In this document: piece by piece, positions 22,925-38,244 of the stretch
Layout of the letters: each line of letters starts with the position of its first letter
How positions within the stretch are numbered: position 1 is the stretch's first letter
Virus genome (UHGV): UHGV-0332176
DNA from: a virus
Length of the DNA: 64,000 bases
Strand: one strand, 5' to 3'
Position numbers and translations under genes: made by a program
The notes under the pieces: model-generated
Database searches by the model: none
What the model saw: the letters and a program-made list of their open reading frames with translations, nothing else
What the model was told of the DNA's origin: nothing

Positions 22925-23380
22925 AAAAATGGAGACCTTGCTCCTTGATAAACTTTAAATAATCTAAATCACCAAGGGATAACCTGACGACCATATAGTG
23001 TAACAGCGGATATGGAGAACGGTTTGAGAGAGATAGCAAAAACCTCTCAATTTATATAAATTGTTAATATCTGAAAAGATGAGAACTTTGTTGTATAACG
23101 ATGGCAGTATCGGAGACTGGAAAAATGCTTCGGATTAACAATTTATATAAATTATTCAATTAAAAGAAAAATATTAAATATATCCGTGAAATACCTCCTT
23201 TTTATGTTTCCGAAAATTAAAAACATTGATTGAATAATTTAAATTATGTCTCGACTCTTGAAAGATAGAATATCGGGGCGACAATTTGAAATATAATTGT
23301 CCGTTATGGGTGATGTTGGAAAGGTTAGCGAATCCCGAATCATACGAAAATGATAAAATAAGAAAACCTTTCAATATTTA
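22925..23380 (+). ncRNA. candidate structured non-coding RNA(s) between the last early promoter and tRNA-Tyr
   Basis: About 450 nt with no ORF over 25 codons on the + strand. Multiple long-range complementary pairs: ccttg/caagg, ttgagagag/cctctcaa, gacaatt/aattgtc. Confidence 0.3.
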
Positions 23381-23382
23381 AT

Positions 23383-23466
23383 GGGCAGGCTGCGAAGTTG
23401 GAGAGTCGCCTTTGACTGTAAATCAAATCCCTTCGGGGTGAGTGTGTTCGAATCACACCCTGCCCA
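23383..23466 (+). tRNA. tRNA-Tyr(GUA), type II with a long variable arm; CCA encoded (to 23469)
   Basis: Acceptor gggcagg/cctgccc; anticodon loop ctGTAaa; T-arm gtgtg-ttcgaat-cacac. Confidence 0.8.
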
Positions 23467-23602
23467 CCATTTAAAATATATTATTTAATTAGTTAATTTG
23501 ATGAAATATATATTTAGTTAATATATAAAATAATCTATGAAAGAAGTGAAAATTCTTTCATATTATTTAACTAATAAACTTTAACTAATTAAATAATATA
23601 TT

Positions 23603-23676
23603 GGACATATAGCTCAGTCCAGTAGAGCACCAGACTGAAAATCTGGGTGTCGGTGGAGCGAAGCCACCTGTGTCCA
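23603..23676 (+). tRNA. tRNA-Phe(GAA) with an atypical T-loop (agcgaag); CCA encoded
   Basis: Acceptor ggacata/tgtgtcc; anticodon loop ctGAAaa; variable gtgtc. The T-loop lacks the TTC consensus. Confidence 0.6.
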
Positions 23677-23820
23677 CCAATTTTAAAAATATGGAACTCA
23701 TAAAAGTAATATTATTAGTATGCTATTAGCGATATAGACGAAAGTGAAAATAATATGAAATGAACGGAGTTTAAATTCCATAGACTATATTCGAAAAGAT
23801 AGGTATAGTCATTTATAAAT

Positions 23821-23894
23821 GGGCCAGTAGTTCAGCTGGGAGAACGCCTGCTTTGCACGCAGGATGTCGTGGGTTCAAGCCCCACCTGTGTCCA
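23821..23894 (+). tRNA. tRNA-Ala(UGC)-like, probably chimeric or a pseudo-tRNA: its 3' acceptor strand does not pair with its 5' end
   Basis: Body is nearly identical to bacterial tRNA-Ala through the T-arm. The 22-nt 3' tail ccacctgtgtccaccaatttta (23882..23903) is an exact copy of the tRNA-Phe tail (23664..23685). Confidence 0.45.
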
Positions 23895-23904
23895 CCAATT
23901 TTAT

Positions 23905-23977
23905 TCCTCGTTAGCTCAATGGTTAGAGCAATCGGCTGTTAACCGATAGGTTTGGGGTTCGAGTCCCTAACGGGGAG
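23905..23977 (+). tRNA. tRNA-Asn(GUU); CCA encoded
   Basis: Acceptor tcctcgt/acgggga; anticodon loop ctGTTaa. Confidence 0.8.
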
Positions 23978-24301
23978 CCACTTTTTAATAAAAGTTTTGT
24001 ATGAAAACTAGTGAGTAATACAAAAAGTTTAACCCAACTGTACTTCAACAGGGTTCTTACAGAAGAAATAATCTGTCGTAGGATAGAAAATGTCTATGTT
24101 ATGGAAGTGTACACCAAAGTTTTGGCGTTTGAGTGGTAGTTACCAAATAAAACTATAAACTACCATATTTACAGTTTTTAGCTTAACATTATGTTAAGTA
24201 TTACAGAAAAAGTCTTTTGGGTCTCTACCAAAAGCGTTGAACTGGACGGCTATGGGCAGATGGTTCTTATGTAGAATACGATAAATTCTACAATTTTATA
24301 T

Positions 24302-24377
24302 CGGGTAGTCGCCTAATCTGGTATGGCACTTGCTTTGGGAGCAAGAAAAATTGGCGGTTCAAATCCGTCCTACCCGA
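24302..24377 (+). tRNA. tRNA-Pro(UGG); CCA encoded
   Basis: Acceptor cgggtag/ctacccg; anticodon loop ttTGGga; 7-8 nt variable loop. Confidence 0.7.
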
Positions 24378-24429
24378 CCATATATTTAATAAATACTTGT
24401 ATAAATAACAAGTTAAGGATTATTAAGTC

Positions 24430-25011
24430 GTGATTAATAGATTTGAAAAGATAGAAAATGAAAAATTTATAGAAATATTTAATACTTCTGAAAGTAAAGG
24501 TGAAATTTGTCGTAAATTAAATATGCATAATAATGGTAAATCTATGAAATATATTAATGCAATGATTAAAGAACTTGGTTTGAATATAAATATTTTTAAA
24601 GAAAATCATTTCAATAAATATCATATAAAAAAGATTTGCCCTGTATGTGGTAAAGAATTTATTACAACAACAACGGAAAAAGGTAAGAATAAGGTATGTT
24701 GCTCATATTCGTGTGCTAATACTTATTTTCGTAGTGGTGAAAATAATGGAATGTATAAAAATTCTAATCTTTCAGGAAGAAATTCTTATTCAACTATTTG
24801 TTTTAGACATCATCCTCATAAGTGTTGTATATGTGGCGAAGAAAATATAGTTGCTGTTCATCATTATGATGGTAATCATAATAATAATGATATAAGTAAT
24901 TTAATTCCTTTATGTCCAACACATCATTGTTATATACATTCACGATTCAAAAATAAAATACAAGATAAAGTTGATGAATATAGAAATAATTTTATAAAAT
25001 CAAATAGTTAA
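24430..25011 (+). CDS. HNH homing-endonuclease-like protein with an N-terminal Zn-ribbon (GTG start)
   Basis: HNH motif HHYDGNHNNNDISNLIPLCPTHH. Zn ribbon CPVCGKEF...CCSYSC is shared with 27708 and 33183. Embedded between tRNA genes. Confidence 0.6.
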   Translation: MINRFEKIENEKFIEIFNTSESKGEICRKLNMHNNGKSMKYINAMIKELGLNINIFKENHFNKYHIKKICPVCGKEFITTTTEKGKNKVCCSYSCANTYFRSGENNGMYKNSNLSGRNSYSTICFRHHPHKCCICGEENIVAVHHYDGNHNNNDISNLIPLCPTHHCYIHSRFKNKIQDKVDEYRNNFIKSNS

Positions 25012-25285
25012 TAATTTTTCTAAATGGTGCTGAATTACCACAAGTACTTATTTCAGTTAAATGTAGTTGCAAAAAATATGGTCGCTCCATAAGAACTCAA
25101 GCCATTTAAACTTTGGGTTAATGCATACCAATAGTCCAAAGCATTCGAAGTCAGCCGCTTCGTAAAATAGGAGTATAGTTTTTTGAATATTTTGACTAGA
25201 CTATAAATATTCTCCATCTATGGAAGAAATAGTCGTGGATATTGACTAACCCGAAGTATTACGAGAAGATACTTCAAATTTTAAT

Positions 25286-25358
25286 GGTTCGGTGACAGAA
25301 CGATTAATGTACTCGCCTGCAAAGCGATGTTTAGTGGGTTTGACTCCCACCCGAATCT
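25286..25358 (+). tRNA. tRNA-Cys(GCA), weak D-stem; CCA encoded
   Basis: Acceptor ggttcgg/ccgaatc; anticodon loop ctGCAaa; T-loop tttgact. Confidence 0.5.
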
Positions 25359-25389
25359 CCAATTTATTTTTTAAGAATGGTGAGAAATT

Positions 25390-25483
25390 GATTTACATAG
25401 ACTGGAAATCCGTGTGTAGAAAGTTCGATTCTTTCCCCATCGACCATTTAACGGTGGGTAGCTCATTGGTAGAGCAACGTTAA
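25390..25483 (+). ncRNA. tRNA fragments: a 3' half (T-arm gaaag-ttcgatt-ctttc + cccatcg-a-CCA) followed by a 5' half (ggtgggt-a-gctc-attggta-gagc-a-acgtt)
   Basis: No complete cloverleaf could be folded by eye. The 5'-half motif tagctcat(a)ttggtagagcaacg recurs at 34146..34169. Confidence 0.35.
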
Positions 25484-25531
25484 ATGATAATCAATTGTTA
25501 TGTTCCTTCTTAATTTTTTATAAAAAAGTTC

Positions 25532-25559
25532 TTGACATTAAAAAATTATGTGTTATATT
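25532..25559 (+). promoter_or_regulatory. early-type promoter aaaaaagttcTTGACA-N16-TGtTATATT
   Basis: Read directly; upstream of the 25606 gene. Confidence 0.6.
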
Positions 25560-25839: not shown

Positions 25840-26432
25840 AAGTTTTGGTAGTTGGAAGTTAAGCTATTAGGGCAGGAGCAACTTAACTTCCATCTATTGA
25901 TACGAATCCTGATTTATTAATTACCTTCACGTGGTTCAGGATGTAAGTAAGAATTGCAGTTTATAACATAAGACAATTTCTGAAACTAAAAATTAATTTT
26001 TAAAATGATTTAATTGAATTATAGTAAATTAAATAAGTTGATTAAATACGTGAGCAATATAGAATCAACAATTGGTATAAAAGCAGATTATAACCGAACT
26101 ACTTAGGCTTACGGTAGACGTAGGGTATAACCACGATTAGGGCAATTTATTTTGAATCTTCATTATGAGTCCTCAACAAATATAATCGTTTTTAAAAAAT
26201 TCTGCATATTTAAATTTTTAAAATTATCTTTATGATGTCTTTCGTTCCTTTCATTGTTGTTACATAAAGATAATTTTGGAGAGATTAATCTCTCCACTTA
26301 TAGAAACATTAAAGATGTCAGTTCGAATCTGACCTGCCTGAATAAAAACTTTTAATATTAAATTGATATTAAAAGTCGGGTGGTAGTAATAACGGTAGAA
26401 TAGTAATGTTGCTATAAATGGAGAATTTTTAT

Positions 26433-26504
26433 GGGTGTATAAGTCAACGGTTAGACTAACAGCCTTTTAAGCTGTAGATGAGGGTTCGATTCCCTCTGCA
26501 CCTA
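26433..26504 (+). tRNA. tRNA-Lys(UUU); CCA encoded
   Basis: Acceptor gggtgta/tgcacct (two G.U pairs); anticodon loop ctTTTaa. Confidence 0.7.
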
Positions 26505-26873
26505 CCAATTTATATTATTGTAGTTAAATACTTTAATGTATCGTCTAATGGCAAGACACCCTCTGTTCGTGTTGAGGGAAATATAGGTTCGAATCCTAAT
26601 AATCATTAAAAATATATAAGAAAAATAACAAGTTTCTTTTTTGATAATTTGGTATTGGAAATTAATGCCCAATTATGACAAGTATTTAACAAAATTTCCT
26701 GACTCTAATCAAAGAATTAGTGATTGATAATTTAATAATTATCTGTGTGCGTGATATGACACCCTTTATCAACGCTTGCATACAAGACTGCATAAATCAA
26801 GATGGGTAGGTGGCTGTTTATCCGTTTCACCTTTCAAATGATAAACAAAACGTTAAAACGGATTGCATTTTAT

Positions 26874-26945
26874 TCTGGTGTAGCTCAATGGTGGAGCAAT
26901 CGGCTGTTAACCGAAAGGTTGTAGGTTCAAGTCCTATCGCCAGAG
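26874..26945 (+). tRNA. tRNA-Asn(GUU), second copy; CCA encoded
   Basis: Acceptor tctggtg/cgccaga; anticodon loop ctGTTaa. Confidence 0.7.
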
Positions 26946-27179
26946 CCAATTATAATAGTAATCATAATATTTAATTTAATAGGATTTTGGTAGCTAGATA
27001 ACCCAAGATATGAAAATTAATATTGATGATATGGTTTAAGATTTTGACCATTAACCGTAATGAAAATCCAGTTTATTTATTGTACTCGGTTAACAATAAC
27101 GTAGAATTGGTAATTCTTAGAAAGGTACGTTAAGCCTTTTATTAAATAAATATCTTATATAATTTATGAGGTATTAAAG

Positions 27180-27602
27180 ATGAGATTAATAGACATATTA
27201 GCATTATTTAAAGCTATTAAAAATACTGCTAAAAAATATCATTGGAAAACAACAGGTTCAACTTTTATGTCAGACCATTTATTATTTGATAGAATTTATG
27301 ATGATATTGATGATGACCAAGTTGATACAATTGTTGAACAATATTATATGGGTGTTGGAAGAAAAGATATTAATGATTTAGATAATTTAATTACATTATC
27401 TGCACAATATGAAGGTAAATCATTTTCTGCAACTTCTGAAAGTATAATTTTAATGTATCAAGAATTAGCAAGAATGATGAATACATTTTTAATTAATATT
27501 GAAAAATTAAATTTATTAAGAGGTATTAATTCTGAATTAGATAATCTTTCTTCAACTATTACACAATTATATGGTTTAGTAACTGCAAGATTATGTCAAT
27601 AA
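27180..27602 (+). CDS. hypothetical protein (140 aa)
   Basis: RBS gaggta; sits between tRNA genes. Confidence 0.45.
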   Translation: MRLIDILALFKAIKNTAKKYHWKTTGSTFMSDHLLFDRIYDDIDDDQVDTIVEQYYMGVGRKDINDLDNLITLSAQYEGKSFSATSESIILMYQELARMMNTFLINIEKLNLLRGINSELDNLSSTITQLYGLVTARLCQ

Positions 27603-27604
27603 TT

Positions 27605-27679
27605 GGGGCTGTGGGCGAATTGGTAGAGCCACCACCCTTTCAAGGTGGATTCTTGCCCGTTCAAGTCGGGTCAGTCCTA
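27605..27679 (+). tRNA. tRNA-Glu(UUC); CCA encoded
   Basis: Acceptor ggggctg/cagtcct; anticodon loop ctTTCaa (same as E. coli tRNA-Glu); T-arm gcccg-ttcaagt-cgggt. Confidence 0.7.
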
Positions 27680-27707
27680 CCATTTTTTATTAAGAAAGAA
27701 ATAAAAA

Positions 27708-28423
27708 ATGTATATATGTAAGAATTGTGGTAAAGAATTTTTAGAAAAATATAGCAAATGGTCAAATGGAGATTTTTGTTGTAAAGAATGTGCTAGAAGT
27801 TATTCAACAAAAAATAAAAGACAAGAAATTAATGAAAAAGTTTCTAAAACATTAAAAGGAAGAATTATTGGAAAAAATTCTTTATTAAAAAATATTAATA
27901 TTAAGCAACAATATGAAAAAGCTCCTTTATTATGTCCAATATGTAACAATATAATTTTATATGAAAGATATATTAAACATAGAAAAACTTGTAGTACAGA
28001 ATGTGGTAAAGAATTAGCAAAAAGAAATCATTCTCATCAAGGTGGTGGTTATAGAAAAAGAGCAGGAAGAAGTAAGCACGGATATTACAAAGGAATTTAT
28101 TGTGATTCAACTTATGAGTTAGCTTATTTAATTTATTGTTTAGACCATAATATTAATATTAAAAGATGTGAAGAAACATTTGAATATGAATATAATGGAA
28201 AAAACATAAATATCATCCTGATTTTATTGTTAATGATGAAATTATAGAGATAAAAGGTTATCATAATAATTTGGTCGATATTAAAATGAAATCTATTATA
28301 AATAGAAAATATAAAATATTATATATTAATGATTTATTTAAATCATTTGAATATGTTAGTAAAGCATATAATAAAAAATTTCATAATAAATGGAATAATT
28401 TTTATGAATTATATGATGAATAA
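27708..28423 (+). CDS. Zn-ribbon + Vsr-like PD-(D/E)xK endonuclease (homing-endonuclease-like), needs a -1 frameshift at slippery heptamer A_AAA_AAC (28199..28205); the 0-frame stops at 28247
   Basis: The 0-frame carries two Zn ribbons (CKNCGKEF..CCKEC; CPICNN..CSTEC). The -1 frame continues as HKYHPDFIVNDEIIEIKGYHNN... (Vsr/DUF559-like PDF...EIKG nuclease motif) to TAA at 28421. Ends 1 nt before tRNA-Asp. Confidence 0.5.
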
Positions 28424-28424: not shown

Positions 28425-28501
28425 GGTGTGTGGGAGAGCTGGGTGTTCTCGCCTGCCTGTCACGCAGGAGATTCAGAAGGGTTCGAACCCCTTACACACC
28501 G
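28425..28501 (+). tRNA. tRNA-Asp(GUC); CCA encoded
   Basis: Acceptor ggtgtgt/acacacc; anticodon loop ctGTCac. Confidence 0.75.
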
Positions 28502-28709
28502 CCAATTTTTTGAGATATATGCCTAGCAGTTTTCGGTAAAAAATCAAGAAAACAAATGCCTGTATGGTTAAGACATATATCTATCGTCTGTGGAAAATAA
28601 TAGTCCGTAAGGTTCTGTAATACAAGATATTATAGGTTAAATGTTCAGCTATCGAACGGAGAATAGCCAAACCAGCAAATAAGGTGGAAAGCCTTATATT
28701 AATTGTTAT

Positions 28710-28782
28710 GGGTGTGTAGCTTAAATGGTAGAGAAACTGACTCTTAATCAGTATGATGAGGGTTCGAAGCCCTCTGCACCCA
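28710..28782 (+). tRNA. tRNA-Lys(CUU); CCA encoded
   Basis: Acceptor gggtgtg/tgcaccc; anticodon loop ctCTTaa. 3' half closely related to tRNA-Lys(UUU). Confidence 0.6.
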
Positions 28783-28798
28783 CCAAAAAAATAATTAT

Positions 28799-28871
28799 GC
28801 ACCCATAGGCTAATTGGACAAACCCAAAGTCTTCTAAACTTTTATTACAGGTTCGAGTCCTGTTGGGTGTG
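28799..28871 (+). tRNA. tRNA-Arg(UCU); CCA encoded; D-arm irregular
   Basis: Acceptor gcaccca/tgggtgt; anticodon loop ctTCTaa. Confidence 0.55.
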
Positions 28872-29252
28872 CCAGTTATAATTTTATTAAATAATTTGCC
28901 AGCAGGGAAAAGTGAAATGACGCTTCCACCCACTTATTAGGGTTAGATATAGCATCCTTTGCCGTGATGTTTAGTCAGCATCCTTGAAGTTTCATATTGA
29001 GGAAACTTGACATCGTGAAGGAAAGGTTAAACGTCAGACCATAAATAATGGAACAGTTTGTAAAAGAGCCTTTTAAACTGTGGAATAAGTGGCAAATTAT
29101 TTAATAAAATTTTTATGATGAAACGGTGTGGCGGTGTACATATCTGAAAGTAATAGACCTGGTCTTTTAATTTGAAAGTGAAAATTAAACAAAGGTATTA
29201 CCGTTAGAGGAAGTAAGAAGTCAATGGTTCAACTCCATTTTTCATCATTTAT

Positions 29253-29325
29253 GCTCGGTTAGTTCAGCTGGAAGAACATCGCTTTTACACAGCGAGGGTC
29301 GGGAGTTCAAACCTCTCACCGAGTA
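29253..29325 (+). tRNA. tRNA-Val(UAC); CCA encoded
   Basis: Acceptor gctcggt/accgagt; anticodon loop ttTACac. Confidence 0.75.
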
Positions 29326-29330
29326 CCAAT

Positions 29331-29401
29331 TTCGGGGTCGTCTAGTGGTAGGACATTGCACTTTGACTGCAATAACGTTGGTTCGAATCCAGCTCCCGAA
29401 G
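29331..29401 (+). tRNA. tRNA-Gln(UUG); CCA encoded; starts 2 nt after the previous CCA
   Basis: Acceptor ttcgggg/tcccgaa; anticodon loop ctTTGac. Confidence 0.7.
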
Positions 29402-29683
29402 CCAATTTTTAACTTGGGTTTTAACATTTTTATCCCTTTTCCGAAAAAGAAAATGTTAATAGTTGTAATTACAACTCGTTGAGGAATACTATCGTGAAAA
29501 AGTATTGGTTTATTGATTGTTTTTTATATGCTTTGGAACTCCCAGAGACCTGAAATCAATAAGGTATAATAAAGCATCTTAATTTAATAATGGGTAAGAT
29601 TGTAGAATCTCTGATATTAAATTTTAAAGTTTTATTCGTGAATACGGAAACAATGTTAAGTACGTTAATCTTAACAATTTTAT

Positions 29684-29772
29684 GGTGAGTTGGTAGAGTC
29701 AGGTTTAATACAGCAGTTTGCTAAACTGTCGCTTCCGAAAGGTTGCCAGAGGTTCAAATCCTCTACTCACCG
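29684..29772 (+). tRNA. tRNA-Ser(GCU), type II with a long variable arm; CCA encoded
   Basis: Acceptor ggtgagt/actcacc; anticodon loop ttGCTaa; variable arm about 18 nt. Confidence 0.7.
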
Positions 29773-29803
29773 CCATTAAAAATTAAAAAAATAAAAAAAG
29801 TTC

Positions 29804-29832
29804 TTGACAATTAAGAATTTAAAGAATATATT
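29804..29832 (+). promoter_or_regulatory. early-type promoter aaaaaaagttcTTGACA-N17-TATATT
   Basis: Read directly; precedes a structured leader and tRNA-Ile. Confidence 0.55.
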
Positions 29833-29864
29833 CTTTATATAAGGTGCTGATATGCCTTAAATCA

Positions 29865-29985
29865 AAATTATCAGTCCGAGTTTAAAGTTTGGGGTGAGAT
29901 AAACTTTGGTTTAAAGTAATCCAGAAACTTTGGTTTCAATATTTCGCATTAAAATATTGCGTTGGACTGATTATCCCAAAACCAT
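29865..29985 (+). ncRNA. structured leader or small-RNA candidate closed by long-range pairing atcagtccga / ttggactgat and containing two aaactttggttt repeats
   Basis: Read directly; no ORF. Confidence 0.3.
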
Positions 29986-30008
29986 TACGATAAGATGGTT
30001 TATTTAAT

Positions 30009-30082
30009 AGGCTCGTGGTGGAAGTGGTTAACACGTTGCTCTGATAAAGCAAAGATTCCCAGTTCGATTCTGGGCGAGCCTA
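30009..30082 (+). tRNA. tRNA-Ile(GAU); CCA encoded
   Basis: Acceptor aggctcg/cgagcct; anticodon loop ctGATaa. Confidence 0.75.
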
Positions 30083-30119
30083 CCAAATTTAAAATAATTT
30101 ATTTGTGGGAGTATTATAA

Positions 30120-30332
30120 ATGCCAATGGAAAAGAAAGTTTTAACTGATGCAGAAAAAGAATTAAAAAAGAAAGAACACGAATTTAATAAGAAAATTAAT
30201 CAAGTTTGGAAGTTAAGACCATATAAAATTAATGGAATTTCTAAAAATGTTGGTAAAGCTCCAAAATGCAATACAAAAGTTAAAACTGAAAAACCAGTAG
30301 AAATGGTAAATCAGAAAAAGAAAAAGAGATAA
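30120..30332 (+). CDS. small lysine-rich basic protein (70 aa)
   Basis: ORF between tRNA genes. Upstream gggagtattataaatg gives a weak RBS. Confidence 0.35.
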   Translation: MPMEKKVLTDAEKELKKKEHEFNKKINQVWKLRPYKINGISKNVGKAPKCNTKVKTEKPVEMVNQKKKKR

Positions 30333-30340
30333 AAATAAAT

Positions 30341-30413
30341 GCTCCGATAGGCTATGTGGTTAAACCAGGGAGCTTATATCTCTCAATGCACGGTTCGAGT
30401 CCGTGTCGGAGTA
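30341..30413 (+). tRNA. tRNA with anticodon UAU (Ile, AUA-decoding); CCA encoded
   Basis: Acceptor gctccga/tcggagt; anticodon stem gggag/ctctc with loop ctTATat; T-arm cacgg-ttcgagt-ccgtg. Confidence 0.55.
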
Positions 30414-30422
30414 CCATATTTT

Positions 30423-30495: not shown

Positions 30496-30808
30496 CCATT
30501 TTTATAAAAGTTTTGGTTCAGACAATACGCACAAGGTGAAGATAGCACAACGGTGATGAACCATTGATATAAAAAGAATGATTTAGCGGTCATAAACTAT
30601 TATATTATAAAAGTGTCTGATGACTTTAGTTCTTTTCAATAAGGAAAAGAGTTGCAACAACCATTAATTTAAATGTTTGCTAACAAGTTCATTTAAATTA
30701 AGTATGGTAATAATGTTAGAGGAAAAATTTATTGATTTGACTATGTTAAAATCAATCGGTGAATTTTAATAATTCTCATAAATCATCTGTTAAGTGATTA
30801 TTATATAT

Positions 30809-30880
30809 AGCGGGATAGAGCAGGGGTAGCTCACTTGGCTCATAACCAAGAGGTCGGGTGTTCGAGTCACTCTCCCGCAA
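30809..30880 (+). tRNA. initiator-like tRNA-fMet(CAU): 1:72 A.A mismatch, A11:U24, 3' end CCCGCAACCA as in E. coli tRNA-fMet
   Basis: Anticodon arm cttgg-ctCATaa-ccaag; D-stem gagc/gctc with A11-T24; T-arm gggtg-ttcgagt-cactc. Confidence 0.6.
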
Positions 30881-30993
30881 CCATTTAATAGGTAGGTACG
30901 AAGATAGCTCAAATACCTCGTAAAACTAAATAGTCGTGCTATCCGCAAACTTTTGTAGAGTAAATGGCGATATAAGTAACTCTACATTTTAAT

Positions 30994-31066
30994 GGCAGAT
31001 TAGTGAAATGGTTTATCACGGCTGACTCATATTCAGCAATTACAAGTTCAATTCTTGTATCTGCTA
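30994..31066 (+). tRNA. tRNA(CAU), third CAU-anticodon tRNA (Met or Ile2); CCA encoded
   Basis: Acceptor ggcagat/atctgct; anticodon loop ctCATat; T-loop ttcaatt. Confidence 0.6.
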
Positions 31067-31094
31067 CCAATAATTTTTTTGTGGGAAATAATCA

Positions 31095-32268: not shown

Positions 32269-32297
32269 TTGACATATAAAAATTATTATGTTATATA
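32269..32297 (+). promoter_or_regulatory. early-type promoter aaaaaatacTTGACA-N17-TGtTATATA
   Basis: Followed by about 750 nt with no ORF. Confidence 0.55.
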
Positions 32298-32299: not shown

Positions 32300-32830
32300 A
32301 TATTGTTCCTAATGATGAATTAGGTTAGATGAAAAATCTGTAAAAATTGTGTTTATTTTTAATAATTCAGAAAGGAGTTATATATCAGAATCATTCAATA
32401 ATTGGTATTATTAACCAATAGGAAGCCTTTTTAAGGCAATGAGAGTAACCAATCTTTCTTTTGATATATTATAATTTGTTGTTACTTGAATAATGGGTCG
32501 CCAGCCCATAAAAGTATACAGATGATAAACTGAAAAGTTTTGAAGGTAGTTGTGAGTAATATGAGCATAAGGTTGAAATAGCCACAGTTGGATAACTGTG
32601 AGTGACGTAAGAACCAGACAAATCGTGGTTGAAGAATCTGATGGCTGTATCTGGTTGGGAGTAATCAATCTCCCCATCTATTAAGCAAAGGAGTAATTAA
32701 CCTTTGTGGATGTGACTGAATAATGTGTGAATATGAGGGGCTTGTCGGTAGTCAGGAGTCCGACCAACAAATTATAACAGTTTGTGGCAGTCGTTCTGTT
32801 AAAAACTCTGCCTTTTTATTTAAATTGATA
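32300..32830 (+). ncRNA. promoter-proximal ORF-free region, candidate large structured RNA
   Basis: No + strand ORF longer than 40 codons. GC-richer islands (gggtcgccagccc, gaggggcttgtcggtagtcaggagtccgacc) in an AT-rich background. Confidence 0.25.
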
Positions 32831-32851
32831 GTAAGAAAAAGATTTACATAG
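32827..32851 (+). repeat. unit-start repeat, copy 6 (gatagtaagaaaaaGATTTACATAG)
   Basis: Family consensus TTGnnAATAGTGAG-N5-7-AGATTTACATAG. Other copies: 32912..32942, 33878..33902, 33975..33999, 34066..34090, 34218..34243. Confidence 0.7.
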
Positions 32852-32932
32852 ATTAATTTTTGGTATTAATAACAACAAATTTTTTTCAGGGTTCTTCAAT
32901 TTAAATAAAAATTGCGAATAGTGAGTTATTAG

Positions 32933-33006
32933 ATTTACATAGCTAAATTGGTTAAAGCATCAAATTGTTAATTTGAGTATTGTAGGTTCAATTCCTACTG
33001 TAAACA
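32933..33006 (+). ncRNA. tRNA-shaped RNA (Y-RNA-like unit 1): acceptor atttaca/tgtaaac with A1.C72 mismatch, anticodon-loop ttGTTaa, canonical T-arm gtagg-ttcaatt-cctac, no encoded CCA
   Basis: Immediately follows repeat copy 1. Every bona fide tRNA in the island encodes CCA; this one does not. Confidence 0.45.
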
Positions 33007-33041
33007 CAATCTAATAGAATGTTCTTTCGCTTTTTATTATT

Positions 33042-33079: not shown

Positions 33080-33162
33080 GGAAGGCAACTGGCTGGATGA
33101 AGACACCGACTTGAAATCGGCTGGGCAGAGATGCTTTGGGGGTTCGAGTCCCTCGCCTTCCG
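33080..33162 (+). tRNA. tRNA-Ser(UGA), type II with a long variable arm; CCA encoded
   Basis: Acceptor ggaaggc/gccttcc perfect; anticodon loop ctTGAaa; T-arm ggggg-ttcgagt-ccctc. Confidence 0.65.
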
Positions 33163-33182
33163 CCATTTTTTTGAGAAAAAAT

Positions 33183-33569
33183 ATGAAATGTTTAAATTGT
33201 GGTAAAGAAATATTTGATAAAAAACATAAAAATAGAAAATATTGTTGTAATAAATGTCAAAAAGAATTTGAATGGAAACAAACAAAACAATTAATTGAAA
33301 TTTATAATACATATCAATTAAAAAATTATAATGAATATACTGCAAGAAGGACAGCTAAAAAATATTTAATTGAAAAATATGGAAATAAATGTAGTATTTG
33401 TGGAACGACTCATTGGTTAGGAAAACCAATTTTATTAATTGCTGACCATATAGATGGAGATGCCACAAATAATTCAATAAATAATATTAGACTTATTTGT
33501 TCTAATTGTGATGCTACATTAGATACATATAAAGCTAAAAATAAAAGTACAAGAACAAGTCGTAAGTAG
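33183..33569 (+). CDS. HNH homing-endonuclease-like protein with N-terminal Zn ribbon (start at MKCLNCGKE; the track's upstream extension overlaps tRNA-Ser)
   Basis: HNH motif ADHIDGDATNNSINNIRLICSNCD. Zn ribbon CLNCGKEI...CCNKC is shared with 24430 and 27708. Confidence 0.6.
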   Translation: MKCLNCGKEIFDKKHKNRKYCCNKCQKEFEWKQTKQLIEIYNTYQLKNYNEYTARRTAKKYLIEKYGNKCSICGTTHWLGKPILLIADHIDGDATNNSINNIRLICSNCDATLDTYKAKNKSTRTSRK

Positions 33570-33574: not shown

Positions 33575-33646
33575 GCCTTCGTGGCTCAATGGTACAGCAG
33601 TCGATTTGTAATCGACCATTTCCTCGTTCAAGTCGGGGCGAAGGCA
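33575..33646 (+). tRNA. tRNA-Thr(UGU); CCA encoded
   Basis: Acceptor gccttcg/cgaaggc perfect; anticodon loop ttTGTaa. Confidence 0.75.
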
Positions 33647-33667
33647 CCAATTTTTAAGAGCTGACAA

Positions 33668-33719
33668 GCTGTTCCGCTTCTTATATTAAATAATATATAG
33701 CTTCTCGAACAGCGTTTTA
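33668..33719 (+). terminator. terminator-like hairpin after tRNA-Thr (gctgttc...gaacagc + gtttt)
   Basis: Read directly; large loop. Confidence 0.35.
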
Positions 33720-33877
33720 ATAAACTCTCCCGCTAAAGATACTTTGTGTATACAGCGAATATGGATAAACGTTAAATCGTTTTAATAACTATAATATAAC
33801 ACGTGTGAAAAAGTTATTATGAGTAAAGAGTTTTCATCAATCTCTATAAACAAAATTGATGAAATTATTTAAATGGT

Positions 33878-34205
33878 AATAGTGAGAAATAGATTTACAT
33901 AGATACTAACATTCAAACTGTTACAATATTAAAGAATCTATTAATATGTTCTTTACCAATTAAATAATTTTGACAATAGTGATATAAAGAATTACATAGA
34001 TAACTGATTATTATCTGCCAGAAAATATTTCTTTATTATTATTCTTTGTCATATAAAAAATTAGCAATAGTGAGAGAAAGATTTACATAGGCTTGTAACC
34101 CGTAGGTAATTGGTTCGAATCCAATCAGATGAATGAAAATTCATTTGTAGCTCATATTGGTAGAGCAACGAAAAAAAGAATCTTTCAATATGTTCTTTGC
34201 TTAAT
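33878..34205 (+). repeat. tandem degenerate Y-RNA-like units 2 to 4, each repeat followed by tRNA-arm-like pieces (T-arm attgg-ttcgaat-ccaat at 34109..34125; D-arm/5'-half atttgtagctcatattggtagagcaacg at 34141..34169)
   Basis: Repeat copies at 33878, 33975 and 34066. Each unit ends near (a)tatgttcttt: 33019, 33946, 34190. Confidence 0.5.
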
Positions 34206-34234
34206 AAATTTTTTGGTGATAGTGATTAATTAGG

Positions 34235-34306
34235 TTTACATAGTGAAATGGTTAACACATTTGTCTTGAAAACAAAGAAATGCAGGTTCGAGTCCTGCTG
34301 TAAATA
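34235..34306 (+). ncRNA. tRNA-shaped RNA (Y-RNA-like unit 5): acceptor gtttaca/tgtaaat, type-I body with Ser-type anticodon loop ctTGAaa, T-arm gcagg-ttcgagt-cctgc, no encoded CCA
   Basis: Immediately follows repeat copy 5. The acceptor helix is nearly identical to unit 1 despite a different anticodon. Terminator follows. Confidence 0.45.
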
Positions 34307-34341
34307 ACACCTAATTTTTTGTTCTTCACCTAACATTTTGC

Positions 34342-34373
34342 AACCCAAGAACATATGTTCTTGGGTTTTTTTA
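34342..34373 (+). terminator. rho-independent terminator (aacccaagaacat/atgttcttgggtt + T7)
   Basis: Read directly. Confidence 0.6.
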
Positions 34374-34385
34374 TTAAATAAATTC

Positions 34386-34414
34386 TTGACATATTTTATT
34401 TAATATGTTATAAA
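34386..34414 (+). promoter_or_regulatory. promoter aaattcTTGACA-N17-TGtTATAAA for the TROVE gene
   Basis: Read directly. Confidence 0.55.
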
Positions 34415-34454
34415 CAGGAATGTAAATTAACCTTAACTTATGGAGTGTTGAAAA

Positions 34455-35744
34455 ATGAAAACAAATAAAGCAATTAAAAAAGACCCAGTATATACTTATG
34501 AAGGTGGTAAAGCATCTCATATTTCTGAATTAGAAGAACTTAAAAGAGCAACAATGTCTTGTTTGCTTTGGGAAGATAATTTCTATGAAGATGGAGTATC
34601 TATTGCAGATAGAATTACCTCATTAGTTAAGGCTTGTATAGATAAAGGTCATTATGATGATGTTATTGATATTTTAAAGAAAGTTAAATTTGATATGAAA
34701 ATTCGTCATTGTCCTTTATGGATGATTGTTGCAATTTATAAAGCTGGTAAAACAATTTCTAAAGATGTTATTGCATCTATCTTAACAAGACCTGATGATA
34801 TGGGTGAATTGCTATCTTTATATAGAAAAGATAATGAAAAATCTCCTATTCCAAATGCTATTAAGAAAGGTATGGCTATTGCATTACAAAAATTTGATGA
34901 ATATCAATTAGCAAAATGGAATCGTAATGCAAATTATAAATTAGTTGATATTGTTAATATTTGCCATCCAAAGGTAACTGAAGCTATTGATAAATTAGTT
35001 AAAGGTACTTTAGAAACTCCTAAAACTTGGGAAGTTTTACTTTCAGCAGCAGGTTCAGATAAAGAAAAGAAAAAAGATGCTTGGAATGAATTAATTGAAT
35101 CTAATAAATTACCAGATATGGCTTTATTAAAGAATATTCGTGGTATGCTAGAAAGCGGTGTATCAAAAACTGTTATTGTTGATAGAATTAATATGATTAA
35201 AAGTGGTCGTTTACTACCAATTGATTATATTAGAGCTGCAGAAAATAATCCATCTTTAGAAAATGAAATTGAAAAGAAATTTCTAAATTGCTTTGAAAAA
35301 CCATCATTATACGGTAAAACTGCAATTCTTGTAGATGTTTCAGGTTCAATGGATGGTGAACGCTTAAAATATGCAAATGCATTGGCAATGATTGGACGTG
35401 AAATGTGCTCAGAAGTTGATATATATTCATTCTCTGATTATGTTAAATTTGTACCAAATCGTAGAGGTTTTGCATTAGCAGAAGCTATTGATAAATCTCA
35501 AACTCATTGGGGAACTAATATGTGGGATGCTATTACTGAAGTTGAAAAAGGACGTTATGATAGAATTATTGTTGTAACTGATGAACAAACTATGGGTAGT
35601 CCTCATAATGCTAAAATTAAAAATGCATATATGATTAATGTGGCATCTTATTCAAAAGGTGTTGGATATAACAATGGTTATAAACACATTAATGGTTTTT
35701 CAGATAAAGTATTCAATTACATTTCTGAAATTGAAAATGTATAA
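34455..35744 (+). CDS. Ro60/Rsr-like TROVE-domain protein (helical N-terminal region + C-terminal vWA with MIDAS DxSxS)
   Basis: TAILVDVSGSMDG MIDAS motif about 130 aa from the C-terminus, downstream of an alpha-helical repeat region, matching the Ro60 (TROVE) architecture. Adjacent to the tRNA-mimic array. Confidence 0.55.
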   Translation: MKTNKAIKKDPVYTYEGGKASHISELEELKRATMSCLLWEDNFYEDGVSIADRITSLVKACIDKGHYDDVIDILKKVKFDMKIRHCPLWMIVAIYKAGKTISKDVIASILTRPDDMGELLSLYRKDNEKSPIPNAIKKGMAIALQKFDEYQLAKWNRNANYKLVDIVNICHPKVTEAIDKLVKGTLETPKTWEVLLSAAGSDKEKKKDAWNELIESNKLPDMALLKNIRGMLESGVSKTVIVDRINMIKSGRLLPIDYIRAAENNPSLENEIEKKFLNCFEKPSLYGKTAILVDVSGSMDGERLKYANALAMIGREMCSEVDIYSFSDYVKFVPNRRGFALAEAIDKSQTHWGTNMWDAITEVEKGRYDRIIVVTDEQTMGSPHNAKIKNAYMINVASYSKGVGYNNGYKHINGFSDKVFNYISEIENV

Positions 35745-35759
35745 ATATTATTAACAAAC

Positions 35760-36068
35760 CCGATAGGCTTCTTATTTAATTGAGTAGTATGGGTATATTA
35801 GATGACTTAATGCTCACTCCCCTCTGCTACTCTTTAAATTAAATATAGCACAATTATCTTTCTGGAATTGACCAGATAAGTTTATTAAAATTCCTAGGTT
35901 AAATTAATAAATGGGTAGATTTATAAAATTATCCTAAACACGCTCTGATACTTTAATAGTATTAACGCTTATTATATGAGATTACATATAACAATTATAA
36001 TTTCAGCTGTTCAGTTATAATTGGGATATTGGATTTAATCAATTTAACAAGAGAGATTAATTTCTTTC
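35760..36068 (+). ncRNA. ORF-free region downstream of the TROVE gene, candidate additional Y-RNA-like RNA
   Basis: No ORF. Terminal complementarity gagtag...ctactc (35784/35829). Hairpin aacaagagaga...tctttcttgtt at 36046-36074. Confidence 0.25.
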
Positions 36069-36320
36069 TTGTTAAATTATTTTTGTATAAAAGGAAATAA
36101 AATGTTAAATTTAAAAAGTATTTTAAATGATAATATGAGAGTAAAATTTGATTTTTATCGTGATGGTGCTTTATGGTATTCAACAATGAATGGATTTCAA
36201 TTTCCTGTTTCCGTAAAAACATTAGCTGGTACAACAATTTTAAAAGCTAATGATAAAGCATCAGCATTTAGTTATTATATTAAAAAATATTATAATGAAT
36301 TAAATAAAGATAAGGAATAA
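36069..36320 (+). CDS. hypothetical protein (83 aa)
   Basis: RBS aaaaggaaataaaatg. Confidence 0.4.
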   Translation: MLNYFCIKGNKMLNLKSILNDNMRVKFDFYRDGALWYSTMNGFQFPVSVKTLAGTTILKANDKASAFSYYIKKYYNELNKDKE

Positions 36321-36325
36321 TTTAG

Positions 36326-36742: not shown

Positions 36743-36765
36743 TGCGATTTTTTTGTTGACAAGTA

Positions 36766-36793
36766 TTTTTATTATGTTATATTAATATCATCT
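36766..36793 (+). promoter_or_regulatory. promoter TTGACA-N16-TGtTATATT (preceded by terminator aaatcgcatt/aatgcgattt at 36728..36756)
   Basis: Read directly. Confidence 0.55.
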
Positions 36794-36889
36794 TAAATGT
36801 TTTGGAGAAAAATAATGGTATATCTTTTCATTTTTTGTATTTTATATTTTATTATTTTTAATGATTCAATTAATTAATGGAGAAAAAAT

Positions 36890-37129
36890 ATGAAATGGTA
36901 CACACAAGCAGATATGCCTTATGGTAAAGAACCGATTGTTGTAAAAACTGTTGATAAACAAATTTATTTAGGAAATCATCAACATATTCATAATTCTAAT
37001 CTTAAACATACTTTTAAGAATGAAGAACAATGGGTATTAACAACTAATCAACAAAAAATTGAATGGTCAAAAATTAAAGAATGGCATTATGTTCGAAAAA
37101 TTGTTGATGTAATTGAAAGGAAATTTTAA
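36890..37129 (+). CDS. hypothetical protein (79 aa)
   Basis: RBS atggagaaaaaatatg. Confidence 0.4.
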   Translation: MKWYTQADMPYGKEPIVVKTVDKQIYLGNHQHIHNSNLKHTFKNEEQWVLTTNQQKIEWSKIKEWHYVRKIVDVIERKF

Positions 37130-37399
37130 ATGAAAAATTATTTGATAATGGTTTATAATTTTAGTCAATGGATGTGGGTTTATGATTTCCAAAATAAAAA
37201 ATGGAATAAATTTAATTGGGGTAATAATATTTCTCCTAAGCAATTTCTTGAAATTGCTGAAAAATATAATATGTTTTATTTTTCAGCTAAAGATGTAGAA
37301 GAATCATATTCTAAATTTGATAAAGATGAAATAGAATTTATGGGTTTTGATGACCCAAACTGGAAAGAAAAAGTGAGGATTATAAGTTATGTTGGCTAA
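37130..37399 (+). CDS. hypothetical protein (89 aa)
   Basis: Start overlaps the previous stop (TAAATG). Confidence 0.4.
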   Translation: MKNYLIMVYNFSQWMWVYDFQNKKWNKFNWGNNISPKQFLEIAEKYNMFYFSAKDVEESYSKFDKDEIEFMGFDDPNWKEKVRIISYVG

Positions 37400-37733
37400 A
37401 AAGAAAAATATTTTTAAAAAGATATTGTATTTTATTATAATCGTTGGTACTCTTATTTTAGGATTATCTATTAGTGATGCAAATGCTAAATATGTTATTG
37501 CTTCTCAATATTCTTTTGATACAGACACATTTGCACAAATTTTAGAGATATGTGAAATGAAAGGTTGTCAACTTAAAGGTAATTTGGTTTATAATTCTTA
37601 TGGAAAATATTTACAAGTATTAATGGATTGTCCATACATATTTGATTATGAATATATAACAGAAAAAATGTTTGAATATTGGTCACACGATATAGAAATT
37701 AAATTGCCACAAGATATATCTAAATTTCTATAA
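37389..37733 (+). CDS. hypothetical protein with an N-terminal TM helix (114 aa)
   Basis: Overlapping start; hydrophobic N-terminus. Confidence 0.4.
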   Translation: MLAKKKNIFKKILYFIIIVGTLILGLSISDANAKYVIASQYSFDTDTFAQILEICEMKGCQLKGNLVYNSYGKYLQVLMDCPYIFDYEYITEKMFEYWSHDIEIKLPQDISKFL

Positions 37734-37747
37734 ATATGAATACGAAT

Positions 37748-37833
37748 GGTGGATGTAGTCAAGTTGGTCGAAGACGTTAGATTGTGGCTCTAATACATAA
37801 GAAACATCGTGGGTTCAAATCCCACCATTCACC
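37748..37833 (+). tRNA. tRNA-His(GUG)-like with G-1:C73, an atypical 15-nt variable region, and no clean CCA
   Basis: G-1 + gtggatg / cattcac + C73; anticodon arm ttaga-ttGTGgc-tctaa; T-arm gtggg-ttcaaat-cccac; 15 nt between the anticodon and T-stems; 3' end reads CAC. Confidence 0.35.
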
Positions 37834-37925
37834 CACCTCAATAATGCAATAACCTTTACGAGGTTTGAGGTATAAGTAATTCAATAGTTGGATGAAACTA
37901 ATAATTGCAAAATATTGAAAAATTT

Positions 37926-37999
37926 GGCTCGTTAGGCGAATTGGCATAGCCGTCTGTCTTAGGTACAGAAGTTTGGGGGTTCGAGTCCCTCACGAGCTA
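37926..37999 (+). tRNA. type-I (short variable arm) tRNA with Leu anticodon UAG and Leu-like D-arm; CCA encoded
   Basis: Acceptor ggctcgt/acgagct; D region ggcgaattggcatagcc resembles bacterial tRNA-Leu; anticodon loop ctTAGgt; variable loop only 5 nt. Confidence 0.5.
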
Positions 38000-38006
38000 C
38001 CAATAT

Positions 38007-38080
38007 GGGCAGATGACGGAATTGGTATACGTGCTACACTCAAAATGTAGATTTTGTGAGTTCAAATCTCACTCTGCCTA
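38007..38080 (+). tRNA. type-I tRNA with Leu anticodon CAA; CCA encoded
   Basis: Acceptor gggcaga/tctgcct; anticodon arm ctaca-ctCAAaa-tgtag; 5-nt variable loop; T-arm gtgag-ttcaaat-ctcac. Confidence 0.5.
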
Positions 38081-38244
38081 CCAAGATAAATTAAAATTGT
38101 GGGGAAAAATGAGAACAGTTTATGAATATATAAAAGAATTTATTCTTCAAATTTGTTGGCTTTTTAAATAATTTTGTGGAGAAATAATATGTGCAAAGAG
38201 GAAAATGACATCAAGTAAGTTAATAACTTATAGGAGATGTCAAA

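Follow-up and report, generated by a model that had tools for sequence, protein, structure and literature searches.

The 64,000 nucleotides (nt) of virus genome UHGV-0332176 analyzed here, hereafter the window, contain a ~15-kb island of transfer RNA (tRNA) genes that, in the reading we favor and consider likely, also houses a Ro60/Y-RNA-like module and selfish endonucleases. The region is a genuine phage tRNA gene island, and within it lie a Ro60 gene and seven paralogous RNA modules (E1 to E7) built on one covarying scaffold. The comparisons below establish the gene content, the structures of the RNAs with their covariation and their synteny with Ro60, and the mobility of HNH endonuclease genes; that Ro60 binds the modules, and what they do, we infer. 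An earlier note on this DNA had overlooked both the Ro60 gene and the seven-copy family, which are most likely what the spacers between the tRNA genes mean. Tail-fiber-like and SSB proteins (PHROG matches) and closest relatives that are IMG/VR viral contigs of 217 to 287 kb, together with a G+C content of ~26% over the whole 64-kb window, mark the DNA, judged from its genes, as that of an uncultured AT-rich jumbo phage.

A DNA near-identity search with the island against 50,697 phage records returned tRNA-sized matches only and no relative; relatives, which derive from gut and other metagenomes, were recovered via the Ro60 protein, and L-numbers denote their contigs or loci. L135 is a 26.7-kb Logan contig whose Ro60 is 95% identical to the window copy and whose shared island segments are 97 to 99.6% identical to the window, and L001 and L002 are the IMG/VR viral contigs (217 and 287 kb), with a Ro60 protein identity of 86 to 87%. 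Ro60 identity to the window copy is 73 to 79% in L011, L012, and L136 (79% in the last), 59% in L003, 56% in L014, 39% in L006, and 36% in L008.

The open reading frame (ORF) at positions 34455 to 35744 is, from its domain content, a Ro60 (TROVE plus vWA) ortholog. Pfam TROVE matches it with an E value of 1.9e-15, vWA_2 matches weakly, and PHROG 850 matches as well; the best match in the PDB is the Ro60 of Thermus phage phiLo (9KOP/9L5Y, E 1.9e-11), which aligns over the full length with DVSGSM aligned. Homologs of Ro60 number 4235, TROVE being carried by the matches listed, and 95 deposited phage genomes carry one, never at more than 42% identity to the window Ro60. Ro60 genes preceded by Y RNAs have been described in phages before (PMC4201824, PMC12135203, PMC7824862). 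YrlA adjoins Ro60 in bacteria and in 22 phages, with several Y RNAs per locus, and the YrlA Y RNAs of bacteria and phages are circularly permuted tRNA mimics (PMC4201824). The phiLo Ro60 binds two upstream Yrl RNAs via CGAA in a large internal bulge and forms an assembly with the PNPase of the host (PMC12135203). In the window, the gene and the seven modules are arranged as follows.

25373-25511, + strand: E1, YrlA type, with T arm GAAAG/CUUUC and D arm GCUC/GAGC
32824-32900, + strand: E2, short, with a plain hairpin tip
32914-33030, + strand: E3, enclosing a complete CCA-less cloverleaf (ARAGORN "tRNA-Asn GUU," 32933-33007)
33875-33957, + strand: E4, short, with the T-arm-like tip hairpin UAACA-UUCAAAC-UGUUA
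33972-34050, + strand: E5, short, with an anticodon-arm-like tip hairpin and a 7-nt loop
34063-34201, + strand: E6, YrlA type, with T arm AUUGG/CCAAU, a 9-bp acceptor closed by GAAA, and D arm GCUC/GAGC
34215-34330, + strand: E7, a complete CCA-less type-I cloverleaf (ARAGORN "tRNA-Ser UGA," 34234-34306), followed by a terminator at 34342-34367
34455-35744, + strand: Ro60/Rsr ortholog, 429 aa, with a TROVE ring and a vWA domain with the MIDAS motif DVSGSM

Repeat analysis, folding, and delimitation by script place all seven modules on the + strand, E4 to E7 at 125 to 580 nt upstream of Ro60, E2 and E3 at ~1.4 to 1.6 kb, and E1 at ~9 kb. The scaffold common to them begins with a 5-bp outer helix, a 1-nt bulge, and a 2-bp helix of the form RG/CY (AG/CU, in E1 GG/CC), opens into an internal loop with (U/C)GA(G/A) on the 5' side (window type UGAGA) and (A)AUAUGUU on the 3' side, and continues into a 7-bp inner helix that leads to an invariant UACAUAG at the base of every tip. 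The helix sequences differ in nearly every copy, and the pairing is always kept. Five contigs (the window, L135, L001, L014, and L003) supplied 24 distinct scaffolds, in which 97.6% of cells are paired, an optimistic figure for a reason given below, and 12 of the 14 pairs have changed on both sides; they score 0.83 for covariation, against 0.21 for shuffled scaffolds and 0.08 to 0.16 with the partner strand slid. Compensation between orthologs tells the same story, GGUGA/UCACC having become GAUGA/UCAUC in L135 and AAAGAUU/AAUCUUU having become AAGGAUU/AAUCCUU in L001. A descriptor scan of both strands of the 64 kb found the full signature at the seven E sites only, with weaker matches at the shuffled level, and the scaffold in none of the 25 bona fide tRNAs. 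Two other pairings were tried and rejected: ACAUA with 3' UAUGU is available in the YrlA-type copies only and would cross the covarying inner helix, and AGAA/UUCU in place of the 2-bp helix fails in E1, E3, E5, and E7, whereas RG/CY holds in 24 of 24.

Orthologous arrays are present in L135, L001, L002, L003, L006, L008, and L014, the last with one module. L003 has five modules upstream of Ro60 with a 5' GGCGA(A/G), the first of which carries GGCGAAUG, an exact instance of GNCGAAN0-1G; the three modules of L006 and the two of L008, also upstream of Ro60, read GG(U/C)G(U/A)AG on the 5' side, then UACUUC, then YUGUUCC on the 3' side. When four lineages are pooled, 96.1% of cells are paired and the covariation score is 0.99, against 0.25. 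In L006, positions 2023 to 6751 hold the Ro60 gene (39% identical) and its three Y-like modules within an array of 18 tRNAs, so the association of Ro60 with a tRNA island recurs in separate lineages. A scan of viral contigs with TAGTGAN{6,12}TTACATAG gave at least 120 single matches, apparently by chance, and a stricter scan with ATAGTGAN{5,9}GATTTACATAG recovered only two known contigs, together with single matches at 8 other loci, none of them well paired.

The Rfam consensus for YrlA shows GGCGAAUG toward its 5' end and AuGuucC toward its 3' end. The loop motif of the modules has the position and context of the published GNCGAAN0-1G; in L008 it reads GGUGAAGG, and the loops of the window clade (AGUGAGA, AGUGAUU, AGUAAGA, and GGUGAGA) keep the G and the GA with C changed to U. 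The 5' loop motif of the window would be a local, drifted form, in an AT-rich clade, of the published Ro/Rsr-binding GNCGAA, and binding to it is predicted. The covariation of the scaffold, the motifs of the other lineages, the Rfam consensus, and the phiLo study together lead us to read E1 to E7 as Y RNAs of the YrlA/YrlB class.

Two of the seven, E1 and E6, align to the YrlA model itself. Rfam RF02553 matches E1 at 25394-25507 over the full-length model (40.7 bits, E 4e-6) and E6 at 34101-34172 (36.6 bits, E 6e-5), with 16.5 kb searched in each case. Both have the permuted order of a T arm, a closed acceptor hairpin, and a D arm (GUAGCUCA..GGUAGAGC), and the order is kept in the YrlA matches just upstream of Ro60 in L001 (9060-9175), L002 (9057-9171), and L003. 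In E1 the closed acceptor has 7 bp (CCCAUCG/CGGUGGG) and a loop starting with ACCA, which may recall the YrlA of Mycobacterium smegmatis, an RNA that is cleaved by RNase P and acquires CCA (PMC4201824).

E3 and E7 carry complete cloverleafs, which score 66.7 and 70.7 bits on the tRNA model, the best matches in the window, and are the only cloverleafs without CCA besides tRNA-His. Their anticodons vary among orthologs: E3 has GUU in the window and UGA in L001 and L002, and E7 has UGA in the window, AAC in L001, and AAU in L002, with GAU in an L003 cloverleaf. The true tRNAs that flank them keep both identity and order. All five pairs of the E3/E7 "anticodon" stem covary, and in most orthologs a 5-bp acceptor (UUACA/UGUAA) is followed by a 4- to 5-nt bulge and then by the inner scaffold helix. 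Because the anticodons differ while the stem covaries, the anticodon arm appears to be kept as structure only, and the cloverleaf tips are, on this comparative evidence, not decoders. For annotation, this means that domains of Y RNAs account for 2 of the 25 tRNAs that ARAGORN calls by default in the island and for at least 1 in L008. In L008, the ARAGORN "tRNA-Pro" at 2058-2134, upstream of Ro60, forms the 5' portion of a Y RNA of YrlA-like type, and the annotated 68-nt "tRNA-Gln" of Caulobacter phage CcrColossus (L147, 5128-5195), in a 1.3-kb noncoding gap upstream of Ro60, may be a similar case.

The same two cloverleafs are the starting point of an alternative that we regard as unlikely, namely, that the scaffold is a signal for tRNA-precursor processing or stability (a leader-trailer helix for RNase III, E, or P), that E3 and E7 are genuine tRNAs to which CCA is added later, and that the short and permuted copies are by-products. 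Beyond the top tRNA-model scores, E3 and E7 retain U8, G18G19, and the T-loop; the modules lie close-packed in tandem with tRNAs and have to be excised from longer transcripts; and genes near Ro60 in relatives specify Thg1-like enzymes and a nucleotidyltransferase of the PolyA_pol family (CCA-adding type). Some tRNAs of phage T4 acquire CCA posttranscriptionally. Genuine tRNAs, however, would not be expected to vary in anticodon among close orthologs, and the variants include A34 (AAC and AAU), which is not normally bacterial. The short acceptor and bulge of most orthologs speak against processing as well, as do the tips of E2, E4, and E5, which contain no releasable tRNA, the absence of the scaffold from all 25 CCA-type tRNAs, and the apparent match of both loop motifs to those of known Ro-bound YrlA RNAs.

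The spacers pose the related question of decay. The earlier note had remarked that several of them lack ORFs, which holds at a threshold of 60 aa on either strand, and had pointed to orphan T-arm pieces in them, which we find within 10 nt of where it put them: GTCAG-TTCGAAT-CTGAC at 26317, AATGG-TTCAACT-CCATT at 29223, and TAGG-TTCGAAT-CCTA at ~26585. It had suggested decayed tRNA genes or tRNA-like noncoding RNAs; compensatory changes and permuted order bear out the noncoding RNAs and tell against decayed genes. The three pieces are parts of the following elements, which from their conservation are tRNA-like RNAs rather than decayed genes.

26292-26415, + strand: E8, a permuted tRNA-like RNA with a T arm (26317-26333), a weak D arm, and a long basal stem
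26536-26607, + strand: pseudo-tRNA-like RNA, a CCA-less cloverleaf (Rfam tRNA 26.5 bits; 54.7 bits for L002 585-650)
29117-29248, + strand: X1, CCA-less, with a T arm (29223-29239) on which an acceptor-like stem of 9 bp is stacked

The closed acceptor of E8 spans 7 bp and takes in an inserted hairpin of 11 bp; the RNA has no UGAGA/UACAUAG scaffold, and its minimum free energy (MFE) is −40.1 kcal/mol (z −6.06). In L002, as read by eye, its T stem (AUUGG/CCAAU), acceptor (GUAUAU/AUAUAC), D stem (GUUU/GAAC), and basal stem (UGCUGG/CCAGCA) have all changed in sequence with the pairing retained. The 26536-26607 element conserves its D and T arms, and its "anticodon" loop is 10 nt here and 3 to 4 nt in L002. 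X1 has one long arm where a tRNA has its D and anticodon arms. Its sequence matches L001 at 94% identity, whereas the surrounding 29115-30000 is only 72% identical, and three of its pairs are compensatory; the two positions at which it differs from L135, the only such positions, make up one of these pairs.

That the spacer pieces are functionless remnants of tRNA genes, left by duplication, deletion, and endonuclease-driven rearrangement, we consider very improbable. The island is certainly dynamic relative to L135, with HNH genes gained and lost and tRNA-Pro and the Lys(CUU) region replaced; neither the D arm of E8 nor the acceptor of the 26536 pseudo-tRNA is perfect in the window copies; and the closed-acceptor loop of E1 reads ACCAUUUAA, as in neighboring tRNA 3' ends. 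Decay would not, however, keep helices by compensatory changes among both paralogs and orthologs, nor leave X1 so much better conserved than its surroundings. Two adjacent remnants would not give the order T arm, acceptor, and D arm with complementary acceptor strands, and the scaffold recurs upstream of Ro60 genes at only 36 to 59% Ro60 identity. That the seven copies are instead a repeated DNA element conserved as DNA (resembling a miniature inverted-repeat transposable element, or a recombination or homing target) is hardly credible, for although they are clustered copies of 77 to 139 bp with terminal complementary sequences in an island with homing endonucleases, their arms vary in nearly every copy yet pair, G-U pairs and the RG/CY switch included, which indicates selection at the RNA level, and every copy is on the transcribed strand at stable orthologous positions in an island with no transposase.

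Several observations weigh against reading the modules as Ro60-bound Y RNAs. The local loop motif is UGAG, UGAU, or UAAG, not CGAA, and the YrlA scores of E1 and E6 are well below the Rfam gathering score of 69. E3 and E7, with the top tRNA scores, may function as tRNAs after CCA addition. The scaffold is absent from E8, X1, and the 26536 pseudo-tRNA, and their link to Ro60 is therefore only positional. L011, L012, and L136 have Ro60 with no Y-like module or YrlA match within 10 kb, an Rfam E-value search of their Ro60 loci likewise giving no YrlA match, so the adjacency is not universal. The 3' halves of the scaffolds were picked by a script that maximizes pairing, which inflates the percentage of cells paired, although the conserved GUUCU that adjoins each picked site did not enter the score. 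Finally, the binding of E1 to E7 by Ro60 and their expression and processing in the present phage are predicted.

For the Ro60/Y-RNA-like module, we infer the following scheme of Ro60 binding, partner enzyme, processing, and biological role. A sigma-70-like promoter is predicted on the + strand at 25532-25559 (TTGACA-16-TATATT, 11 of 12 consensus matches), and a consensus scan and repeat families point to similar promoter-like blocks at 29804-29832, 32269-32297, 34388-34416, and 36756-36783; the + strand of the island would be transcribed from these several sites. The tRNAs and Y RNAs would be cut from common multigene precursors, presumably by host RNase P and 3' nucleases, and the 25 phage tRNAs would supply translation. 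Ro60 would bind the internal loop of the scaffold on its outer surface, and the variable tip could tether it, or gate it, toward tRNA-recognizing proteins or a host 3'-5' exonuclease such as PNPase, in the way documented for bacterial Ro60 and for the phiLo protein. The role would be RNA or tRNA quality control during infection, beside tRNA supply. More speculatively, and in our judgment doubtfully, the tips could be a diversified bait, in which Ro60-bound Y RNAs show interchangeable tRNA look-alikes (a permuted tRNA or an entire cloverleaf with a freely evolving anticodon arm) that lure or sense host defense nucleases aimed at tRNA or enzymes that modify it, Ro60 is coupled, with an exonuclease that it recruits, to the surveillance or clearance of damaged tRNA, and the 25 tRNAs resupply translation. 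If that were true, permuted YrlA-type and nonpermuted Yrn1-type Y RNAs could interconvert on one scaffold.

The array is like YrlA/YrlB (RF02553; PMC4201824) in having several copies beside Ro60/TROVE, a stem internal loop whose 5' motif may be of the GNCGAA type, with AUGUUC on the 3' side, one permuted class (T arm, closed acceptor, D arm), and, in E4, a short member with a T-arm-like hairpin, as in M. smegmatis YrlB. It is unlike them in its motif, (A/G)G(U/C)GA(G/A), in Rfam scores of 37 to 41 bits against 69, in its seven copies against two to four, and in its UACAUAG block, tRNA-island setting, and two full cloverleafs. The Yrn1 of Deinococcus radiodurans has a nonpermuted topology, its T- and D-like arms standing, relative to the RNA ends, in the reverse of the YrlA order, and was proposed to be independent in origin from YrlA (Chen et al. 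2014, PMC4201824). By its published description, it shares with E3 and E7 a middle stem-loop at the anticodon position and a Ro-binding stem that extends from the acceptor position; E3 and E7, in contrast, are near-canonical complete cloverleafs and share scaffold and array with YrlA-type copies. The phiLo system resembles the present one in having a phage Ro60 with Y-like RNAs directly upstream and a stem-internal bulge-stem layout with the motif in the bulge, and recruitment of host PNPase is proposed in both; phiLo, however, has two Yrl RNAs and no reported tRNA island, and the protein similarity is remote. The tRNA islands of large phages (T4, T5, KVP40, and other jumbo phages) have 20 to 30 co-oriented tRNAs with small ORFs and HNH-type genes between them, and T4 species 1 and 2 RNAs are stable non-tRNA small RNAs in a tRNA cluster. 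Unlike those islands, the one described here has a Ro60 gene with its ligand family, and conserved noncoding RNA other than tRNA makes up about a third of it.

In the limited literature that we searched, we did not find descriptions of a seven-member array, of a class tipped with cloverleafs whose anticodons are unconstrained, of the two topologies together on a single scaffold, or of such an array embedded in a tRNA island rich in noncoding RNA. Ro60 and Y RNAs are conserved from bacteria to humans, in whom they are lupus autoantigens. The locus is a natural experiment, with seven Y-like RNAs, one scaffold, and three kinds of tip inside a tRNA supply island, and E1 to E7 offer testable constructs for what the tRNA mimic recruits. 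Should binding fail, the region would still stand out among phage tRNA islands for its wealth of conserved structured RNAs.

Alignments of window and L002 spacers were tested for conserved structure against column-shuffled nulls. The first six entries below stood out, with compensatory pairs given as observed against null, and two structured RNA regions follow them; three coding controls gave z scores of −0.7, −1.7, and +0.8, and four other spacers were not significant against the column shuffles.

26950-27180: spacer, z −6.8, compensatory pairs 7 against 1.1
28505-28709: spacer, z −5.7, compensatory pairs 7 against 1.2
30499-30808: spacer, z −4.8, compensatory pairs 10 against 3.2
30884-30993: spacer, z −4.2, compensatory pairs 4 against 0.3
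32300-32823: spacer, z −9.0, compensatory pairs 6 against 3.0
33650-33874: spacer, z −3.4, compensatory pairs 4 against 1.1
32303-32815, + strand: structured noncoding RNA of ~500 nt (core 32472-32810), 3' of a promoter-like site, alifold −110 kcal/mol
35745-36078, + strand: structured noncoding region running from the Ro60 stop codon to a terminator (36041-36078)

Long stretches of the 32303-32815 RNA are nearly identical to L001 and L002, whereas nearby coding DNA is ~78% identical. Its core at 32686-32774 is manA-like, with optional hairpins deleted, and matches Rfam RF01745 at 25.8 bits, below the gathering score of 55.2. RNAalifold of the 334-nt region at 35745-36078 (window, L135, L136, L011, and L012) gives 70 pairs, 19 of them with compensatory changes, and Rfam has no match to it. 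This multihairpin RNA accompanies Ro60 even where the upstream array is missing (L136, L011, and L012), and it could be a structured 3' untranslated region or another Ro-associated RNA. A sliding 150-nt MFE z-scan of both strands did not discriminate, true tRNAs having a z near 0 and each strand a mean of approximately −0.9.

Default ARAGORN called 25 cloverleafs between 23383 and 38083, every one on the + strand. Two of these, the "Asn" at 32933-33007 and the type-I "Ser UGA" at 34234-34306, lack CCA and lie inside the repeated stem module, and they are not ordinary tRNA genes. The Rfam tRNA model found 23 at the gathering score, including a Cys(GCA) at 25286-25358 that default ARAGORN missed; an Rfam E-value search added Glu and Asp, and relaxed ARAGORN (-ps90) also called the Cys and the type-II Ser(UGA) at 33080-33165. 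With the two module calls set aside, 25 bona fide tRNAs remain: Tyr, Phe, Ala-like, two Asn, Pro, Cys, two Lys, Glu, Asp, Arg, Val, Gln, two Ser, Ile(GAU), a UAU tRNA, three CAU tRNAs, Thr, His, and two Leu. They cover 18 amino acids, Gly and Trp being absent by ARAGORN and Rfam. The earlier note's hand-folded list, put at 24 or more genes in ~15 kb, is identical to this set, all of it on the + strand, and its statement that nearly all encode CCA holds for 24 of the 25, the exception being His.

23383-23469, + strand: tRNA-Tyr(GUA), ARAGORN and Rfam, CCA encoded
23603-23679, + strand: tRNA-Phe(GAA), ARAGORN and Rfam, CCA encoded
23821-23893, + strand: Ala-like tRNA (UGC), ARAGORN and Rfam, CCA encoded
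23905-23980, + strand: tRNA-Asn(GUU), ARAGORN and Rfam, CCA encoded
24302-24380, + strand: tRNA-Pro(UGG), ARAGORN and Rfam, CCA encoded
25286-25361, + strand: tRNA-Cys(GCA), Rfam (47.5 bits) and ARAGORN -ps90, CCA encoded
26433-26507, + strand: tRNA-Lys(UUU), ARAGORN and Rfam
26874-26948, + strand: tRNA-Asn(GUU), copy 2, ARAGORN and Rfam
27605-27682, + strand: tRNA-Glu(UUC), ARAGORN and Rfam E-value search
28425-28504, + strand: tRNA-Asp(GUC), ARAGORN and Rfam
28710-28785, + strand: tRNA-Lys(CUU), ARAGORN and Rfam
28799-28874, + strand: tRNA-Arg(UCU), ARAGORN and Rfam
29253-31069, + strand: tRNAs Val(UAC), Gln(UUG), Ser(GCU), and Ile(GAU), a UAU tRNA, and CAU tRNAs at 30423, 30809, and 30994
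33080-33165, + strand: tRNA-Ser(UGA), type II, with G73, CCA encoded, and an atypical D arm, ARAGORN -ps90
33575-33649, + strand: tRNA-Thr(UGU), ARAGORN and Rfam
37748-38083, + strand: tRNA-His(GUG), Leu(UAG) at 37926-38002, and Leu(CAA) at 38007-38083, ARAGORN and Rfam

The Rfam tRNA-Sec model matches the tRNA-Ser(UGA) at 33080-33165 with 31 bits. The tRNA-His is atypical in having G-1:C73, a 15-nt variable region, and no encoded CCA, and the two Leu tRNAs are 77-nt type-I molecules without the long variable arm expected for bacterial tRNA-Leu. The His-Leu-Leu trio is found in L011, L013, and L135, and L136 and L001/L002 have only His and Leu(UAG).

The earlier note's three invading endonuclease genes are present; two are HNH genes that L135 lacks, and the third is frameshifted here and intact in L135. 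They and the other protein genes of the island are as follows.

24430-25011, + strand: HNH homing-endonuclease gene, 193 aa, PHROG 1271 HNH (E 3e-11), not in L135
27180-27602, + strand: ORF of 140 aa, weakly Dps/DUF5856-like DNA-binding, PHROG 3636 (E 1.8e-10), Pfam DUF5856 below cutoff
27708-28423, + strand: zinc-finger/PD-(D/E)XK-like endonuclease gene, frameshifted, ORF ending at 28247
30120-30332, + strand: ORF of 70 aa
31095-32249, + strand: AAA+ ATPase gene, 384 aa, Pfam AAA (E 2.7e-12), PHROG 2376 (E 3e-85)
33183-33569, + strand: HNH homing-endonuclease gene, 128 aa, PHROG HNH (E 1e-19)

The second HNH gene sits cleanly inserted between tRNA-Ser and tRNA-Thr and is missing from L135 and L002; L135 lacks the first as well, being without window segments 24169-24289 and 24393-24991. 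Both genes are therefore mobile, being absent from a contig that is 97 to 99.6% identical over shared segments, and by their PHROG matches (the Pfam HNH_3 match is weak) they are free-standing homing endonucleases, of predicted activity, with presence/absence polymorphism. The tRNA-Pro beside the first (window 24289-24393, L135 395-498) is 77% identical between flanks of 97 to 99%, a pattern that co-conversion by homing could explain. Relative to L135, the Lys(CUU) region (28711-28785) is also replaced in comparison with the contig, where there are ~490 extra nt with a 54-aa ORF. In the L135 copy of the third endonuclease (238 aa), zinc-finger motifs lie toward the N terminus and the C terminus is PD-(D/E)XK-like; the N-terminal part of the window product has a weak PHROG HNH match. 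The AAA+ ATPase gene is kept within the island in relatives; a MoxR-vWA-type link between it and the vWA domain of Ro60 was considered and rejected, the similarity being only generic and of the Cdc48 AAA type.

Just upstream of the island, 19680-20941 holds a 177-aa ORF that matches only a DNA polymerase III alpha NTPase-domain fragment and an N6/N4 DNA methylase gene, and a NADAR gene lies at 40939-41424. In relatives, Ro60 is flanked by Thg1-like genes (L011 and L012), a PolyA_pol/CCA-adding-type nucleotidyltransferase (L013), and NADAR and YqeY (L011), neighborhoods whose gene content suggests a broader RNA-repair and tRNA-maintenance set. ARAGORN and Rfam found no transfer-messenger RNA (tmRNA) in the window; L136 has a two-piece permuted tmRNA at 12146-12483 (Rfam 104 bits).

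Three details concern the 5' end of the island. The Tyr-Phe gap (23470-23600) is a long AT-rich near-palindrome whose folding z scores against shuffles are −6.6 and −5.1 on the two strands. The tRNA-Phe at 23603 has a noncanonical T loop, AGCGAAG, and the Ala-like tRNA has two acceptor mismatches with G3:U70 retained. The two share an identical 3' end, CACCTGTGTCCACCA.

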